The position numbers were made by a program, and so were the translations under genes. Below are positions 2 through 11,927 of a DNA stretch of 13,309 nt, piece by piece. Numbering within the stretch: the first letter of the stretch is position 1; each line of letters starts with the position of its first letter. The notes under the pieces were generated by a model. The model saw nothing but the letters and a program-made list of their open reading frames with translations. It was not told where the DNA came from and made no database searches. Source of the stretch: a virus; UHGV virus genome UHGV-0315017; one strand, written 5' to 3'.

Positions 2-331
2 CCAGGCACGCCGGCGCAGCGTATTAATGCTCTGACTGATCATACCGATCTGATGACGACGCTGATGCAACGCCTGCTACATGTCAGCACACCTGCCAGC
101 GAATATTCGCAAGGTCAGGATTTGTTCAACCCTCAACGCCGCCATTACTGGGTTACCGCCGCGGATAACGATACGCTGGCAATTACCACCCCGAAAAAGA
201 CGCTGGTGCTGAACAATAACGGTAAATACCGCACTTACAACTTACGTGGTGAAAGAGTGAAAGATGAAAAACCACAGTTAAGTCTGTTATTGCAAGTACT
301 GACAGACGAGAAGCGTTTTATCGCTAACTGA
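2..331 (+). CDS. yejM: 3' end of upstream host gene, partial (open from window edge); probably inner-membrane protein YejM/PbgA C-terminus
   Basis: Reading frame is open from position 2 to TGA at 329-331 (ORF track starts it at Met 53). Lies directly upstream of tRNA-Pro, as yejM does in E. coli (synteny recalled, not searched). Confidence 0.5.
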   Translation, partial: PGTPAQRINALTDHTDLMTTLMQRLLHVSTPASEYSQGQDLFNPQRRHYWVTAADNDTLAITTPKKTLVLNNNGKYRTYNLRGERVKDEKPQLSLLLQVLTDEKRFIAN

Positions 332-580: not shown

Positions 581-603
581 TTTATAAGCTATCAGCCGGA
601 TTT

Positions 604-660
604 TTTAGTTATACGTTTAGTTATACGGGCTGGCGTATAACTAAAGCCGTATAACTAAAA
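604..660. repeat. Arm-type repeat cluster: two direct copies of TTAGTTATACG followed by two inverted copies CGTATAACTAA (candidate integrase arm sites)
   Basis: TTAGTTATACGTTTAGTTATACGG gctgg CGTATAACTAAAGCCGTATAACTAA read directly; the direct-copy half recurs at 11928-11952. Confidence 0.55.
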
Positions 661-3847: not shown

Positions 3848-4015
3848 ATGGCTGTATCCGCACGCCCTTACTTTGTCTGGCGCTTTATGCAGTGCCAGGA
3901 AAAACAAACATCACTCTTTACCGTCACGGCAGCAACAGAACGCGAAGCCCGCGCCCAGCTGCCGCACGCACATCTGATTTTTGTCGCCCGTATTCGTCAG
4001 GGGGTAGGCTTATGA
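3848..4015 (+). CDS. Hypothetical small protein, paralog B (55 aa)
   Basis: AGGAGCC SD 9 nt upstream of ATG 3848; C-terminal 46 aa align with paralog A. The 174-aa ORF-track call from 3491 is rejected. Confidence 0.5.
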   Translation: MAVSARPYFVWRFMQCQEKQTSLFTVTAATEREARAQLPHAHLIFVARIRQGVGL

Positions 4016-4687: not shown

Positions 4688-4987
4688 ATGAAACTTAAAT
4701 ATTCTGGCTTAACTGCCAGTGGCAAAACTCGCACTAAATTCATGCGCGGTGATATTTACCGCGACCAGTACGGCGGCACGGTAATGATTAAGGGCGTGGA
4801 GGAACGGCGCATCACCTACCGTCGTGAAGGCTACGAATATGATTGCGTGATGCCTGTTTATCAGTTTCGGCGTGATTTTTCTCTGGTACAGGCAGCGCCC
4901 CGCAGTAAACCAACCAGCAGGGAGAAAGCACGCGCCAATATTCAGGAAATAAAAAAGATGCTTAACGTATTCAGGGGTAAAAAATGA
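4688..4987 (+). CDS. Hypothetical protein (99 aa) immediately upstream of and coupled to the primase gene
   Basis: GGAGAA SD; stop overlaps the primase start (ATGA at 4984-4987). Confidence 0.55.
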   Translation: MKLKYSGLTASGKTRTKFMRGDIYRDQYGGTVMIKGVEERRITYRREGYEYDCVMPVYQFRRDFSLVQAAPRSKPTSREKARANIQEIKKMLNVFRGKK

Positions 4988-6732
4988 AACTGGCACCGAA
5001 CGTAAAAAAACAACCACGCGGAATAAAACACAAAGACACAGAGGTAATTATTTTCGCGGGTAGTGATGCGTGGGCACATGCAAAACAGTGGCAGGAGCAG
5101 GACGGCCCCGCATCCGGCGATAATGTGCCGCCTGTGTGGCTTGGGCCAAATCAGCTTGCCGAACTTGATGCACTGAAAATTGTTCCGGATGGAAAAAAAC
5201 GCGTAAGGCTGTACCAGGCCGGAGAACTGGATTTGGTGGAGACCAAAAAGATTGGTCAGAAGCTGGCGGCGGCAGATATTCAGGACGCAAATTTTTACCA
5301 CGAAGGAATGCACGTCCAGAAGTGTGAAAACTGGCGGCGCTATCTGAATGCTGAGCGTGAAAATATTGCCGCAGGGCTTACCATGCCGGAGCAGAAAAAT
5401 ACGCAACTGGCACAAATGGCAGACAGTGAGCGCGCGCAGCTGCTTGCCGAGCGCTTTGATGGCGTTTGTGTGCATCAGGAAAGTGAAATCGTTCACGTAT
5501 GGCGCGGCGGGGTATGGTGTCCGGTCAGCACAATGGAACTTAGCCGCGAAATGGTGGCGATCTATTCAGAGCACAGGGCCACTTTCAGCAAGCGCGTAAT
5601 CAATAACGCCGTGGAAGCGTTAAAAGTTATTGCCGAACCAATGGGCGAGCCGTCCGGCGATTTGCTGCCGTTCGCCAATGGTGCGCTTGACCTGAAAACG
5701 GGGGAATTTTCCCCGCACACGCCGGAGAACTGGATCACCACGCACAACGGCATTGAGTACACGCCACCAGCACCTGGGGAGAACATCCGCGATAACGCGC
5801 CAAACTTTCATAAATGGCTTAAGCACGCAGCCGGAAAAGACCCGCGCAAGATGATGCGTATATGTGCCGCGCTGTACATGATTATGGCGAACCGGTACGA
5901 CTGGCAGATGTTTATTGAGGCCACCGGAGACGGCGGGAGCGGTAAAAGTACATTCACGCACATAGCCAGCCTTCTGGCAGGGAAACAGAACACGGTAAGC
6001 GCTGAAATGACATCGCTTGATGATGCTGGTGGACGTGCGCAGGTTGTCGGGAGTCGTCTTATCGTCCTGGCTGACCAGCCGAAATATACAGGCGAAGGAA
6101 CGGGCATCAAGAAAATCACGGGCGGTGACCCCGTGGAAATTAACCCGAAATACGAAAAGCGTTTCACGGCTGTAATCAGGGCGGTGGTGCTGGCGACCAA
6201 CAATAACCCGATGATATTCACCGAACGGGCCGGAGGTGTGGCACGTCGTCGCGTGATTTTCCGTTTCGACAATATCGTCAGTGAGGCCGAAAAAGACAGG
6301 GAGCTACCGGAAAAGATCGCGGCTGAAATCCCTGTCATTATCCGCCGATTGCTGGCGAACTTTACCGACCCTGAGAAGGCACGGGCTTTACTACTGGAAC
6401 AGCGTGACGGTGATGAAGCTCTGGCAATAAAGCAACAGACGGATCCGGTTATTGAGTTTTGCCAGTTCCTGAATTTTCTGGAGGAAGCACGCGGCCTGAT
6501 GATGGGCGGCGGTGGCGATTCAGTGAAGTACACGACCAGGAACAGCCTTTACCGCGTCTATCTGGCGTTTATGGCATACGCAGGCAGGAGCAAACCGCTA
6601 AACGTAAATGACTTTGGCAAGGCTATGAAGCCTGCCGCAAAAGTTTACGGACATGAATATATTACGCGGAAAGTTAAGGGGGTAACGCAGACTAACGCAA
6701 TAACAACAGACGAGTGCGACGCGTTTTTATAA
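4984..6732 (+). CDS. Replication initiator: primase / SF3 (D5-like) helicase, P4 alpha-like C-terminal region
   Basis: 582 aa with Walker A GDGGSGKST and downstream helicase-like motifs; size and position match the pri-rep genes of P4-like and PICI elements. Confidence 0.85.
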   Translation: MKLAPNVKKQPRGIKHKDTEVIIFAGSDAWAHAKQWQEQDGPASGDNVPPVWLGPNQLAELDALKIVPDGKKRVRLYQAGELDLVETKKIGQKLAAADIQDANFYHEGMHVQKCENWRRYLNAERENIAAGLTMPEQKNTQLAQMADSERAQLLAERFDGVCVHQESEIVHVWRGGVWCPVSTMELSREMVAIYSEHRATFSKRVINNAVEALKVIAEPMGEPSGDLLPFANGALDLKTGEFSPHTPENWITTHNGIEYTPPAPGENIRDNAPNFHKWLKHAAGKDPRKMMRICAALYMIMANRYDWQMFIEATGDGGSGKSTFTHIASLLAGKQNTVSAEMTSLDDAGGRAQVVGSRLIVLADQPKYTGEGTGIKKITGGDPVEINPKYEKRFTAVIRAVVLATNNNPMIFTERAGGVARRRVIFRFDNIVSEAEKDRELPEKIAAEIPVIIRRLLANFTDPEKARALLLEQRDGDEALAIKQQTDPVIEFCQFLNFLEEARGLMMGGGGDSVKYTTRNSLYRVYLAFMAYAGRSKPLNVNDFGKAMKPAAKVYGHEYITRKVKGVTQTNAITTDECDAFL

Positions 6733-6744
6733 TTTTTTGTAATT

Positions 6745-6972
6745 GCTGTCTACCCTGTCTACCCGAGTAAAGAAAAATACATTTAATTCAGTGCATTAAG
6801 TTAGGTAGATGGCCTTTTTTTACTGTCTACCCACTATCTACCCTCTCTACCTGATTTTACCTGAATCAGACAGGGAGGTAGACACGGGGTAGATACTGGA
6901 TAAAAGCACTCTACCCCGCTGAAAGCCGCGCCATTACTGGTATGAGGGCCACTAAGGTAGATAAGGTAGACA
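6745..6972. repeat. Iteron array (candidate replication origin): about 12 copies of TCTACC(C) / GGTAGA(C/T) in both orientations
   Basis: CTGTCTACCCTGTCTACCC, GGTAGATGG, CTGTCTACCCACTATCTACCCTCTCTACC, GAGGTAGACACGGGGTAGAT, CTCTACCCC, AAGGTAGATAAGGTAGAC; non-coding and immediately downstream of the primase-helicase gene. Confidence 0.65.
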
Positions 6973-7020
6973 AGGGGAGGCACAACTCAAAACTTTTTAA
7001 ACGAGGGGGTAAAAATAAAT

Positions 7021-7299
7021 ATGCACACTTCAGGGAAATTTAATAAATCACTCAAAAAACGCAGAGACAGAACAGAACCGAAATATCGCGCGTTAGACAT
7101 TACAGAGCACGCTTTAAAGGTGGCAATCAGAACGATAGACCGCCACGCGGGGGAAGGATACGCGAAAGCACATCCCGAACTGATAAGCGCATTCATGACC
7201 ACGACGGCGGCAAATTTTGCCACGCTGACAGAGCGGGAGATTGCCGAAGCGGAACAGGTAACAACCATCAACGTTAAAACCGGAGAGGTGGAATCATGA
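7021..7299 (+). CDS. Hypothetical protein (92 aa)
   Basis: GAGGGGG upstream of ATG; coupled to the ssb start (ATGA at 7296-7299). Confidence 0.55.
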   Translation: MHTSGKFNKSLKKRRDRTEPKYRALDITEHALKVAIRTIDRHAGEGYAKAHPELISAFMTTTAANFATLTEREIAEAEQVTTINVKTGEVES

Positions 7300-7706
7300 C
7301 AGCACAGATAGCCGCTTACGGGCGGCTAGTGGACGACCCGCAGGTAAAACAGACCAGCAAGGGCACACCGATGACGCTGGCGCGTATGGCGGTATCGTTG
7401 CCATGTAGTCAGGCGCAGGATGGGCAGGCGACGTTATGGCTATCGGTCATCGCATTTGGTAAGCAGGCCGACTTCCTGGCTAAACATCAAAAAGGCGACG
7501 TTGCCAGCGTATCCGGCACGATGCAGGTCAGCCAGTGGACCGGACAGAACGGGGAAACGCGGCAGGGTTATCAGGTTATTGCAGACAGCGTAATCAGTGC
7601 CCGTGCGGCACGTCCTGGCGGGAACAGACGCAAAACCACAGGCACACAGGGTAATCAGCCACCAGCGGGAGACGATGACCCCTACGGTGATGATATTCCG
7701 TTCTGA
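7296..7706 (+). CDS. ssb: Single-stranded DNA-binding protein (compact, 136 aa)
   Basis: OB-fold-like N-terminal region, Gly/Gln/Pro-rich linker and acidic C-terminal tail DDDPYGDDIPF matching the conserved SSB tail (...DDDIPF). Confidence 0.85.
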   Translation: MTAQIAAYGRLVDDPQVKQTSKGTPMTLARMAVSLPCSQAQDGQATLWLSVIAFGKQADFLAKHQKGDVASVSGTMQVSQWTGQNGETRQGYQVIADSVISARAARPGGNRRKTTGTQGNQPPAGDDDPYGDDIPF

Positions 7707-7714
7707 ACGCACAG

Positions 7715-7736
7715 GCCGGAGAAAATCCGGCTTTTT
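7715..7736 (+). terminator. Rho-independent terminator after ssb
   Basis: GCCGGA gaaaa TCCGGC hairpin plus TTTTT. Confidence 0.75.
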
Positions 7737-7742
7737 GTATCC

Positions 7743-7786
7743 AAAAAAAGCCCGATAAGTACAGGAGGAAGCTTATCGGGCTTTTG
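7743..7786. terminator. Second hairpin terminator (bidirectional: A-run upstream, T-run downstream)
   Basis: GCCCGATAAG ... CTTATCGGGC 10-bp stem, 12-nt loop, then TTTT. Confidence 0.6.
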
Positions 7787-7858
7787 CTTACGAGGTTAAC
7801 AGCATGGTGACTACTGTTGCCGTAAATCATTTCATAATTTGCAACGTAACTCAATTTC

Positions 7859-7908
7859 ATTGCGCAAAATGCAATCCTGATTATAATCAGGACTGGATGA
7901 ACATCCAG
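7859..7908 (+). promoter_or_regulatory. Candidate capsid-operon promoter (TTGCGC - 16 bp - TATAAT) embedded in an 18-bp perfect palindrome, followed by a second palindrome
   Basis: TCCTGATTATAATCAGGA (7875-7892) contains a consensus -10 hexamer; CTGGATGAACATCCAG (7893-7908) follows directly; about 35 nt upstream of the ATG at 7944. Confidence 0.5.
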
Positions 7909-7943
7909 TTATGATTTTTTAAGTCAAAGAGGAATTTCTTACT

Positions 7944-9206
7944 ATGGCTGAAGAGAAAAAAGGCGGTGTTTCGGTGTACATAAGCCCCGACATCGTGAAG
8001 GCGCTCAAGGAACGCCACCAGCAGAACGTAAAAGCAGGCATTGCGGCAGGACTTGACCCGCTGGCGATGGTTGAGCCGTCAACAGGCTGGCAGGTACGCG
8101 CCTATTTACGCGCGGCGCTGGGTATGAATCAGGTTCACGGGGGGGGAATAATGACAGTAAAAGCAATGGCACTTAACACTAACCAGCTTTTTGCGTACCT
8201 GAATCGCGAGGATATTGCGGAATTTAAATTCAGTCCGCTGTTTACCACGCTGTTTTTCCCGAACGTGGCGACATTCAGCACGCAAAACATCATGCTGGAT
8301 ACCCTGGACATTGAAGAAGTCACCATGTCGGCGTTTTGTTCGCCTATGGTGGGTAGCCAGGTTCAGCGCGATAAAGGGTACGAAACCAGCACAATCAAAC
8401 CTGGCTACATGAAGCCAAAGCACGAAATCGATCCAACGAAAACCATCATGCGCATGGCTGGAGAAGATCCGGCACAGCTTAACGACCCTACCTATCGCCG
8501 TATGCGCCTGATTACTGGCAATATGCGCCGCCAGATAAACGCCATAAAAGCGCGCGTGGAATGGCTGGCGGTAAATGCGGTAACGACCGGAAAAAACATC
8601 ATTGAGGGCGAAGGCATAGAGCGCTATGAAATCGACTGGAAGATACCGGAAAAAAACATCATAGAGCAGGCCGACGGTAAAAAATGGTCAGAGCAGGACA
8701 AAGAAATCCACGATCCAATCTATGATATCGAACTATACGCCGATCAGGCAGGTTGCCCCGCCAACGTCATGATTATGGGCGCTGAGGTATGGCGAACGTT
8801 ACGCAGCTTTAAAAAATTCCGTGAGCTGTACGATCTTTCCCGTGGTTCAGAGTCCGCCGCAGAGCTGGCATGTAAAAACCTGGGCGAAGTGGTGAGCTTT
8901 AAAGGCTATCTGGGCGATATTGCCCTTATCGTCTATTCCGGCAAATACGCCGACAGTGACGGCAGAGAAAAATATTTCCTTGAGCCTGATTTGCTTGTCC
9001 TGGGCAACACCAACAATAAAGGGCTGGTGGCCTATGGTGCGATTATGGATCAGGACGCAGTAAGAACGGGGGCAACGCAAAACATGTACTACCCGAAAAA
9101 CTGGATTGAGGACGGAGATCCGGCGATTGAGTACGTGCAGACACACAGTGCACCGCAGCCGGTACCGGCAGTTATTCGCAAATTTGTTACCGTCAAAATT
9201 GGTTAA
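7944..9206 (+). CDS. Major capsid protein, lambda gpE-like, with about 70-aa N-terminal extension
   Basis: Long blocks shared with lambda gpE as recalled: KFSPLF..LFF, PGYMKPKHE, EDPAQLNDPTYRRMR, SFKGYLGDIALIVYSGKY, LVLGNT, YPKNW..GDPA. AGAGGA SD before ATG 7944. Confidence 0.88.
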   Translation: MAEEKKGGVSVYISPDIVKALKERHQQNVKAGIAAGLDPLAMVEPSTGWQVRAYLRAALGMNQVHGGGIMTVKAMALNTNQLFAYLNREDIAEFKFSPLFTTLFFPNVATFSTQNIMLDTLDIEEVTMSAFCSPMVGSQVQRDKGYETSTIKPGYMKPKHEIDPTKTIMRMAGEDPAQLNDPTYRRMRLITGNMRRQINAIKARVEWLAVNAVTTGKNIIEGEGIERYEIDWKIPEKNIIEQADGKKWSEQDKEIHDPIYDIELYADQAGCPANVMIMGAEVWRTLRSFKKFRELYDLSRGSESAAELACKNLGEVVSFKGYLGDIALIVYSGKYADSDGREKYFLEPDLLVLGNTNNKGLVAYGAIMDQDAVRTGATQNMYYPKNWIEDGDPAIEYVQTHSAPQPVPAVIRKFVTVKIG

Positions 9207-9217
9207 CGGGGGATTCT

Positions 9218-9553
9218 ATGGACACTCCATACATTGAGTTATTTGCAGGCAGTCAGCAGGTCGCCACGACGCTGGTACATTTTGCCGCTGATGCTGGCTT
9301 TATTCAGGAATTTACCCCGCTGATGCTGGCGGACAATGGCGAGTTTAAGCCGTGGGATGGTAAGGAATCTGGCAAGGCTGTTTATCTGACCTCGTACCCT
9401 GTGGACACGTCAAAGCAGAAATCAGCACAGTGTTACAAGACGGGGATATTCAATATTGCCGCCGTTAACTGGCCTGAGAGCGTCGACACCGATGCGAAAA
9501 AATGCGCCGCCTTTGCGGGTTCCGGCGTATCCGTTCAGCCGCTGGCCCGATAA
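9218..9553 (+). CDS. Head decoration protein, lambda gpD-like
   Basis: 111 aa; TPLML, WDG, YKTGIF, WPE and KK.AAFAG blocks match lambda gpD (110 aa) as recalled; GGGGG SD. Confidence 0.85.
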   Translation: MDTPYIELFAGSQQVATTLVHFAADAGFIQEFTPLMLADNGEFKPWDGKESGKAVYLTSYPVDTSKQKSAQCYKTGIFNIAAVNWPESVDTDAKKCAAFAGSGVSVQPLAR

Positions 9554-9565
9554 GCAGGGGGAACG

Positions 9566-9979
9566 ATGGCAACGAATGAAAGCATCATGACGCTACCGCT
9601 GGCGAGTAAATTTAAAGCCGAAGCGCGGGCAATGGCTGACAGAGGTTTATCAACCTATGAGGCCGTATATCAACTAAACAAACTGGAAGAGCAGGACAAG
9701 CCGCGCGCTGATGCGATTATGGCGCTTCATGAGCATAAAGACTATCAGCCGCTGTTGCGTGCAATGGCAAACGTGCCTTGTATCGATGTTGGTACGGCTA
9801 AAAGCATCCTTAGCATGACCATAGAGCAGGAACGCCAGAAGGTTGCACCAGAGCTTACCGCAGCCTTTGAAAACTTTATGGACATGCACAGCCCGCAAGC
9901 CGTATCAGCTGGCATGGCATACGATGGCAGAAACCAGGGCGATGACGGCGACATCGATCGCATACTGAAAACCATCTGA
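9566..9979 (+). CDS. Hypothetical protein (137 aa) between the decoration gene and cos
   Basis: AGGGGGA SD; acidic C-terminus (QGDDGDIDRILKTI); no family recognised. Confidence 0.6.
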   Translation: MATNESIMTLPLASKFKAEARAMADRGLSTYEAVYQLNKLEEQDKPRADAIMALHEHKDYQPLLRAMANVPCIDVGTAKSILSMTIEQERQKVAPELTAAFENFMDMHSPQAVSAGMAYDGRNQGDDGDIDRILKTI

Positions 9980-9985
9980 GACAAG

Positions 9986-10009
9986 GCCGGAGAAATCCGG
10001 CTTTTTTTT
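9986..10009 (+). terminator. Rho-independent terminator (near-duplicate of the 7715-7736 hairpin)
   Basis: GCCGGA gaaa TCCGGC plus TTTTTTTT. Confidence 0.8.
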
Positions 10010-10010
10010 A

Positions 10011-10086
10011 CGGGTCCTTTCCGGCATATGGACCCGTTACGGGGCGGCGACCTCGCGGTTTTTCGCTATTTATGAGCTTTTTCAGG
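10011..10086 (+). other. Lambda-type cos site X (cosQ-like, cosN, I2-like); cohesive-end 12-mer at 10042-10053
   Basis: ACGGGTCCTTTCCGG...CCGTTACG|GGGCGGCGACCT|CGCGGTTTTTCGCTATTTATGA closely matches the lambda right-end/left-end junction as recalled (…CGGGTCCTTTCCGGTGATCCGACAGGTTACG | GGGCGGCGACCTCGCGGGTTTTCGCTATTTATGAAA). Confidence 0.8.
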
Positions 10087-10186
10087 GGGGTGGTGGTGGT
10101 TTTGTTGTTTGCTCTATCTTTATGAATGAAAAGGGAAAGATGCAAACAATACACCAACCTGAAGCAGTAATTAAGTTGGTGTATTA

Positions 10187-10729
10187 ATGAAATCGCACCT
10201 GATGAACAAAAAAAACATGGCGAAAAGCTGCCGTGTAAGTGCGACAGCGTTCGACAAGTGGGGAGTGACTCCCGTTGAACGTAAAGGCCGTGAGGCGTTT
10301 TACGATGTTGCCAGCGTGATAGACAATAGGGTTAACAATGCAATTAGCCAGCTTACAAACGACAAAGGCGATATTGATGATGATGAACTCTTACGAGTCA
10401 GGATCAGATTACTGACAGCACAGGCGGAGGCGCAGGAACTTAAAAACGAGCGCGATCGCGGTGACGTGATTGATACTGAGTTTTGCCTGTACGCGCTTTC
10501 AAAGCTGGCGAGTCAGATTTCATCAATCATGGACAGCCTCCCGCTTACTATGCAAAGGAGCTTCCCACAGATTACCCCCGCCATGCTGGATAGGCTTAAA
10601 AGGGAAGTGGTTAAAGCCTGTAATGCCAGTGCCAGAGTTGCCGACAACCTCCCACAGATACTGGCTGATTACTTGAAAGAAACAACCGGAAACGTACCGG
10701 AAAAGTTGCTACAGAAGAAAGGCGAGTAA
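10187..10729 (+). CDS. Terminase small subunit, lambda Nu1-like
   Basis: 180 aa (Nu1 is 181); N-terminal HTH region and central block LTAQAEAQELKNERDRGDVIDTEFCLYALSKLASQISSIMDSLPLTMQRSFP align with lambda Nu1 (LTRAQADAQELKNARDSAEVVETAFCTFVLSRIAGEIASILDGLPLSVQRRFP) as recalled. Confidence 0.85.
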   Translation: MKSHLMNKKNMAKSCRVSATAFDKWGVTPVERKGREAFYDVASVIDNRVNNAISQLTNDKGDIDDDELLRVRIRLLTAQAEAQELKNERDRGDVIDTEFCLYALSKLASQISSIMDSLPLTMQRSFPQITPAMLDRLKREVVKACNASARVADNLPQILADYLKETTGNVPEKLLQKKGE

Positions 10730-11822: not shown

Positions 11823-11927
11823 GAACATCCACCAGCTTAAAAACGAATGAGCGAAAAAAAATCCAGGTAGAATCATGGAAGTCGCTAGGGCAATCGCCGT
11901 TTAAATTGTGCATTTTTTCAGCAAATT

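Follow-up and report, generated by a model that had tools for sequence, protein, structure and literature searches.

Iteron array downstream of the initiator gene

The DNA analysed here (the window; 13,309 nt, UHGV virus genome UHGV-0315017) contains a chromosomal island located at tRNA-Pro(GGG) (406-482) between yejM and yejO. The island genes are all on the + strand and include int (673-1932) and genes for DUF4222, Pri-Rep, SSB, a Phage_cap_E homologue and a Nu1-like TerS; lambda-type capsid and decoration homologues are also present. This is the organisation of a PICI: an integrase at one end, rightward genes, an initiator and then a packaging/interference module. The segment 6733-7020, which separates the initiator ORF (582 aa, 4984-6732) from a 92-aa ORF starting at 7021, is intergenic and is also annotated as intergenic in related E. 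coli genomes. It harbors a dense array of the hexamer TCTACC (GGTAGA on the opposite strand), the first copy of which is 17 nt past the initiator stop codon (6730-6732). The features of the locus are as follows.

4984..6732, + strand: Pri-Rep initiator gene, 582 aa; N-terminal domain (aa 1-150), D5_N, SF3 helicase (DUF5906/TIGR01613) and predicted C-terminal origin-binding domain (Pfam, NCBIfam and 7OLA matches)
6439..6714, + strand: coding part for the C-terminal origin-binding domain (aa 486-577), the presumed iteron reader (1KA8 match)
6749..6763, + strand: left outer iteron pair, two direct copies of TGTCTACC 9 bp apart; positions invariant in seven aligned loci
6764..6803, no strand: AT-rich 40-bp spacer, 25% G+C, candidate DNA-unwinding element (GC windows; AT-richness kept among alleles)
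6804..6809, - strand: single inverted iteron; position conserved
6826..6851, + strand: three direct iterons (6826, 6837, 6846), spaced 11 and 9 bp apart
6852..6876, no strand: dyad centre, axis 6859/6860, with TTTACC at 6856-6861 and a short inverted repeat (6842-6856 / 6864-6878)
6877..6893, - strand: two inverted iterons (6877, 6888), 11 bp apart
6910..6915, + strand: single direct iteron, mirror partner of 6804
6919..6940, + strand: conserved non-iteron block CTGAAAGCCGCGCCATTACTGG in the right 40-bp spacer; resembles the G4 DnaG primer start; CTG at 6937-6939
6956..6970, - strand: right outer iteron pair, two inverted copies 9 bp apart, mirror of 6749-6763
6989..7020, + strand: leader and ribosome-binding region of the next gene, AAAACTTTTTAAACGAGGGGGTAAAAATAAAT; invariant in the alignment and inside the published 'ori' deletion
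7021..7299, + strand: 92-aa ORF, PHROG 1231 (unknown function), first gene 3' of the array; hypothetical in relatives
7296..7706, + strand: island SSB, likely replication accessory (Pfam SSB, 4e-17; TIGR00621, 1e-15)

On both strands together, the 13.3-kb window has 12 copies of TCTACC, 11 of them within 6749-6970: six on the + strand (6749, 6758, 6826, 6837, 6846, 6910) and five on the - strand (6804, 6877, 6888, 6956, 6965). A scan of the whole window revealed no second cluster; the only copy outside the array is at 11866. A degenerate copy with one mismatch, TTTACC, occupies the array centre (6856-6861). Because this copy adds to the 11 exact ones, the first-pass annotation was fair in describing about twelve copies in ~230 bp of non-coding DNA right after the replication gene. 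In 200 dinucleotide shuffles of the whole window, TCTACC occurred 3.4 times on average and 9 times at most, and no shuffle (0/200) reached 12. About 0.06 copies are expected per 222-bp stretch, vs. the 11 seen.

The iterons are spaced 9, 46, 22, 11, 9, 31, 11, 22, 46 and 9 bp apart (start to start). Ten of the 11 form five nested inverted pairs around a single exact centre, 6859/6860 (6859.5). A common centre for five pairs was obtained in none of 50,000 random placements, and in 7% of trials when only the orientations were shuffled. The left arm aligned with the reverse-complemented right arm at z=9.3, and the single-stranded fold of the array region was better than that of shuffles (z=-2.95). 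The mirror-image 40-bp spacers are unlike: the left one is AT-rich (25% G+C; 0.20-0.27 in 30-bp windows within 6764-6803), whereas the right one contains the G+C-rich conserved block. Six further loci, some of them only ~75% identical over the region, retain the iteron positions and orientations. In the resulting alignment of seven loci the hexamer is invariant at nearly all sites, and drift is seen in the spacers and in the two bases preceding the core; the left spacer retains its AT-richness among alleles as its sequence drifts. The conserved iteron unit is the 6-mer, with a flank consensus of yrTCTACCy and TGTCTACC as its most frequent form. Neither a + strand sigma-70-like promoter nor an intrinsic terminator was predicted in 6600-7100. 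Rfam revealed no RNA family in the region, only sub-threshold miRNA-hairpin matches reflecting the dyad.

Pri-Rep and comparison with EcCICFT073 and P4

Pri-Rep matched D5_N (5e-15), DUF5906 (5e-10) and Pox_D5 (7.5e-5) in Pfam and primase_Cterm/TIGR01613 in NCBIfam, and its aa 188-430 matched the SaPI Rep helicase structure 7OLA (E=1e-14). The SF3 helicase is 43% identical to that of P4 alpha over 322 aa (alpha residues 345-666). At the C-terminus, aa 486-577 aligned with residues 2-92 of the P4 alpha origin-binding domain 1KA8 (32% identity, phmmer E=7e-7); by sequence, this part of Pri-Rep matches a P4 alpha-type winged-helix origin-binding domain, of which it is the putative homologue. In contrast to these parts, aa 1-150 showed no catalytic primase domain in Pfam or NCBIfam, and PHROGs returned PHROG 2850, of unknown function. 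BLASTP of the N-terminus against P4 alpha residues 1-345 gave E=0.07 over 31 residues. Foldseek matches of a single-sequence AF2 model of this domain (pLDDT 61) were generic Rossmann-like (E>=0.025), and the model hints at a beta-alpha repeat fold with low confidence. The gene had been called a primase-helicase gene. The SF3 helicase, D5_N and origin-binding parts bear this out; the primase part does not, because the N-terminal portion has no detectable primase signature and the label is a name inherited from the P4-family C-terminal region.

A protein 100% identical to Pri-Rep exists in E. coli, and a search for homologous proteins yielded only proteins at least 98% identical. The helicase and C-terminal domain hardly vary across six E. 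coli alleles, whose differences fall within the first ~145 residues. In strain TO73, identity of the N-terminus (window 4984-5433) falls to roughly 45%.

Distant initiators were obtained from a scan with one genome per species, which gave 34 loci with initiators 41-52% identical. Alleles with origin-binding domains at least 90% identical all have TCTACC. Relatives with C-terminal domains 29-46% identical have other cores: TGTTCAT (11 copies) in Morganella, TTCACC (9 copies) in Pectobacterium and GGCACTG in Aeromonas. The arrays of Morganella morganii (about 3854-4150 of L010) and Pectobacterium jejuense (about 4271-4520 of L011) lie downstream of the initiator and show the same layout: a tandem pair, a 41-46-bp AT-rich spacer, an inverted copy, a direct run, an inverted run and an outer inverted pair. 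The initial proposal that iteron sequence sets replicon specificity is thus supported insofar as the core covaries with binding-domain identity, which is a correlation rather than proof. In Pectobacterium jejuense, an initiator of PICI length is paired with P4-type TTCACC iterons.

In Gram-negative PICIs, the origin is the region that directly follows the initiator gene on its 3' side (Fillol-Salom et al. 2018, ISME J, PMC6092414). In EcCICFT073 the iterons have already been drawn, as sets that flank an AT-rich region (Fig. 2a, PMC6092414). A thermosensitive plasmid carrying EcCICFT073 pri-rep and ori grows at 44 C, the restrictive temperature, and the pri-delta-ori and delta-pri-ori plasmids differ from pri-ori (adjusted p<0.0001) (Fig. 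2b, PMC6092414). The delta-rep plasmid gave no colonies, and deletion of ori significantly reduced colony numbers without abolishing them; delta-pri-rep cuts EcCICFT073 transfer ~10^3-10^4 (PMC6092414). We mapped the supplementary primers of that study. The deleted 'ori' corresponds to 9038-9345 of the CFT073 locus (L002) and to ~6737-7044 of the window. The delta-ori construct stops 4 nt beyond the stop codon of pri-rep, and the ori-plus construct extends into the next ORF by ~24 nt; because these ends bracket it, the published deletion comprises the whole intergenic segment. The conserved block was removed with it, as was the leader of the downstream gene, and the effect is therefore that of the whole segment, with the iterons a candidate essential part.

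The window ori is 94.4% identical to that of EcCICFT073 over 320 bp, with the same 11 iteron positions and orientations. The AT-rich region described in the Fig. 2a legend of PMC6092414 has its counterpart here: two iterons, the 40-bp spacer of 25% G+C, then more iterons. Also common to the two islands are the conserved block, the placement of ori 3' of Pri-Rep (91% identical), and the 92-aa ORF and SSB that follow. They differ by point substitutions in spacers and iteron flanks, in the N-terminal Pri-Rep allele, in the integrase and in the attachment site: tRNA-Pro near yejM/yejO for the window vs. roxA/phoQ for EcCICFT073, which in CFT073 lies between those two genes, upstream of the capsid/decoration genes c1499 and c1500. 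Unlike EcCICFT073, the window has a Nu1-like TerS gene in its packaging module. Together with the published test and the anatomy of the array, these comparisons indicate, with a probability of about 0.93, that the array serves an EcCICFT073-family PICI of E. coli as its vegetative origin (ori). The origin was published and functionally tested in EcCICFT073 in 2018, and is re-identified here. The details added are the exact dyad, the iteron positions conserved despite spacer drift, the P4-type binding domain, the changed cores in relatives and the lack of a detectable primase domain. As a published element found again, present in ~9% of complete E. coli genomes, the origin itself is of little consequence. 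The added anatomy offers a concrete model of SF3-helicase initiator loading, and the covariation of iteron core with binding domain is a basis for predicting incompatibility of co-resident islands.

The SaPI Rep system of Gram-positive hosts has the same position and general plan, and its helicase core is matched by Pri-Rep (7OLA/7OM0, E=1e-14). It differs in that its iterons are unrelated and the DNA-binding parts of its initiator are different.

The similarity to P4 is closer. Both P4 and the PICI have an iteron array immediately downstream of the initiator gene, short iterons (6-8 bp) in either orientation, and two tandem copies 9 bp apart beside an AT-rich spacer of 43-46 bp. They differ in iteron sequence (TGTTCACC in P4, NC_001609, vs. 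the TCTACC core), in cluster number (two clusters 4.5 kb apart in P4, one in the PICI) and in the form of duplication (crr is a direct 120-bp duplication, whereas the PICI array is an inverted one). P4 alpha has ~345 residues N-terminal to its helicase region, vs. 150 in Pri-Rep of the window; the primase of P4 alpha lies within those residues. The conserved 22-bp block was not found in P4. Of the features that define a P4-type replicon, the SF3 helicase and C-terminal domain are present, no primase domain is detectable, and the TGTTCACC iteron and the bipartite ori1/crr arrangement are absent. Judged from these features, the PICI origin would work like a P4-family origin, yet it is not a P4 replicon by its iteron, bipartite and direct-repeat features. 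Placing an origin here had been justified by the expected position in both P4-like and PICI replicons. This holds for PICIs, given the identity to the EcCICFT073 ori; in P4, however, alpha is followed directly by crr, and ori1 lies at a distance of ~4.5 kb.

P4 is the closest studied relative and its origin is bipartite (ori/crr), so an array downstream of the initiator need not be the start site. The array might instead be a crr-like cis enhancer, with synthesis starting at a second iteron cluster elsewhere. Its layout resembles the start of the crr repeat, in which a tandem pair 9 bp apart is followed by a 43-bp AT-rich spacer and an inverted copy. However, the sole other TCTACC in the window is the isolated copy at 11866, and in EcCICFT073 pri-rep plus a single segment is enough for plasmid maintenance. 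Homology of the PICI arm to the crr repeat was also rejected: global alignment against shuffles gave insignificant similarity (z 0-1.3), and the resemblance is architectural. We therefore regard an enhancer role with a remote start site as very improbable.

Plasmid iterons commonly double as copy-control sites, and by this usual double role the repeats could serve chiefly in copy control or incompatibility, or as operators, regulating the operon downstream or titrating the initiator. Transcription probably crosses the array, because co-directional genes flank it with no predicted terminator between them. On the other hand, no + strand promoter of the sigma-70 type was predicted around the array, deletion of the segment lowered replication rather than raising expression (PMC6092414), and an AT-rich spacer combined with dyad symmetry is the layout of an origin. 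Such a role is compatible with an origin role; as the main function of the repeats it has a very slim chance. A chance or decaying cluster, or a packaging (cos/pac) site, has nothing in its favor beyond the presence of the repeats. No shuffle reached the observed count, iteron positions are conserved over diverged alleles, the cos sites of EcCICFT073 were identified and tested separately from the pri-rep/ori segment, and Rfam found no RNA family. This explanation, to which we attach almost no probability, is already refuted by the conservation and the published deletion test.

Conserved block and proposed initiation at the origin

The block CTGAAAGCCGCGCCATTACTGG (22 bp) is near-invariant in seven aligned alleles, and is the one unexpected item of an otherwise ordinary, known origin. 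With up to two mismatches it adjoins, or falls between, the iterons of at least 23 or so iteron systems with unrelated initiators among the IMG/VR matches listed, so that counts of its contexts are samples. The contexts comprise PICI Pri-Rep, lambda-type O/P and O/DnaB-like phages, Prim-Pol satellites, P4-type GTTCAC arrays and plasmids. Inside lambda-type O genes the block is at the centre of the iteron set, with P or a DnaB-like helicase alongside; phages of this kind include HK75, HK106, mEp234, HK629, IME10, CUS-3 and many Stx2a phages. In another context it lies beside a Prim-Pol/PriCT gene. RepB-family plasmids of ~110 kb have it between DnaA-box/AGATCC iterons and repB. A ColE2-like plasmid of 5 kb carries it ~35 bp from a sequence resembling the ColE2 origin. 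The flanks, which were not fixed by the searches, read CTGnAA-[16-mer]-nTT. Among the matches listed, the most AT-rich segment was 5' of the block in 16 types vs. 7. In O genes the block reads as SNGAA. Retention merely as coding sequence was rejected: the variation is not codon-structured, variants at codon positions 1 and 2 being as frequent as those at position 3.

The block resembles the complementary-strand origin of phage G4. Both have GAAAGCCGC, then 5-6 nt, then TACTG (AAGCCGC-N5-6-TACTG). In G4 this string runs exactly up to the annotated primer start: the primer template has GAAAGCCGCCGTCCCTACTG at its end, and the G of CTG (3996-3998) marks the origin. The window block reads GAAAGCCGCGCCATTACTG. 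The strict shared pattern A-GCCGC...TACTG occurred in 12 of 3000 shuffled G4 genomes. At the equivalent place alpha3, phiK and St-1 have a variant, A-GCCGCC...CCTG, and phiX174 has none. The two sites differ in the sequence 3' of CTG and in their setting: the G4 site acts on SSB-coated single-stranded DNA, whereas the window block is in a duplex origin. G4 requires Hairpin I with a GCGAAAGC mini-hairpin (GCGNNAGC) abutting the start site (PMC13037366). A G4-like hairpin beside the block was rejected, since no stable hairpin is present at the window block and hairpins are not enriched across 23 contexts. The GGTAGA-type (PICI) representative of the block gave 0.0 kcal/mol for the folded 18 nt, in which it is 1 base off the window; folds of -1 kcal/mol or lower were found in 43% of the 23 contexts vs. 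30% of local controls, and values for G4 and alpha3 were -7.6 and -7.7.

On the basis of these comparisons, we tentatively propose that the block is an initiator-independent origin module, a preferred host-primase start that would fix the first leftward leading-strand primer (pppAGUAAUGGCGCGG..., opposite T6938). This is possible, although we consider it the less likely outcome. G4-type primase-dependent priming signals are an established concept, as far as Masai et al. (1990) is presented in PMC3640518. No description of the block sequence was found in the searchable literature, a scope outside which older subscription papers on G4-type ssi fall. Should the block serve as a start for host primase, or as the site of another host factor, enterobacterial phage, satellite and plasmid origins would have in it a common component independent of the initiator, and it would account for the first primer of an initiator with no recognisable primase domain.

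Two other matches to the block were considered. Its identity as a P2 gpA nick site was rejected, since the match is ~200 codons upstream of the annotated P2 nick. The 15-mer GCCGCGCCATTACTG is found within the replication gene A of the P2 family (L045, L048, L052), just past the HUH motif; its occurrence in P2-like gpA probably reflects chance at the coding level, made conspicuous by how abundant P2-like prophages are. A 12-nt match, CGCCATTACTGG at window 136-151, was attributed to chance; it lies inside the 3' end of host yejM, outside the island.

Initiation at the PICI origin could proceed as follows. After helper-phage induction and excision, Pri-Rep would act on the island and bind the TCTACC iterons via its C-terminal winged-helix domain. 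Neighboring iterons are 9-11 bp apart, about one helical turn, and bound domains would therefore be on one DNA face. The nested dyad of ten iterons would allow head-to-head assembly of two SF3-helicase hexamers. The putative melting site, from which bidirectional synthesis would start, is the spacer of 25% G+C at 6764-6803. Because no primase catalytic domain is detectable in Pri-Rep, host DnaG may provide priming, possibly at the block. From a primer placed on the + strand at CTG 6937-6939, synthesis would run leftward across the AT-rich spacer, the geometry expected of the first leading-strand primer of the leftward fork. Later replication would produce concatemers for cos packaging. The only step that has been demonstrated, in EcCICFT073, is that initiator and segment are both needed for plasmid maintenance and together suffice for it.

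Distribution and variation of the island

A 321-bp ori query matched 507 of 5426 complete E. coli genomes (~9%), on the chromosome in every case. NZ_AP045178.1 (7279-17273) shares the replication module with window 4984-10729, with 99.4% identity in ori, and has another packaging module, which is capsid-forming: HK97-type capsid, protease, portal, HNH and TerS/TerL. The junction between shared and different modules is downstream of the SSB/PerC genes.

The capsid homologue of the window (7944-9206) is a single 420-aa ORF with the Phage_cap_E domain from residue 95. The equivalent stretch of CFT073 contains a 68-aa ORF and a 351-aa major capsid protein, overlapping in different frames, and is 1262 nt long vs. 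1263 nt in the window. A one-base difference could have fused the two CFT073 ORFs into the 420-aa ORF. Between tRNA-Pro and the integrase start, window 596-660 contains direct and inverted TAGTTATACG / CGTATAACTA repeats, which could be arm-type integrase or excision-factor sites.
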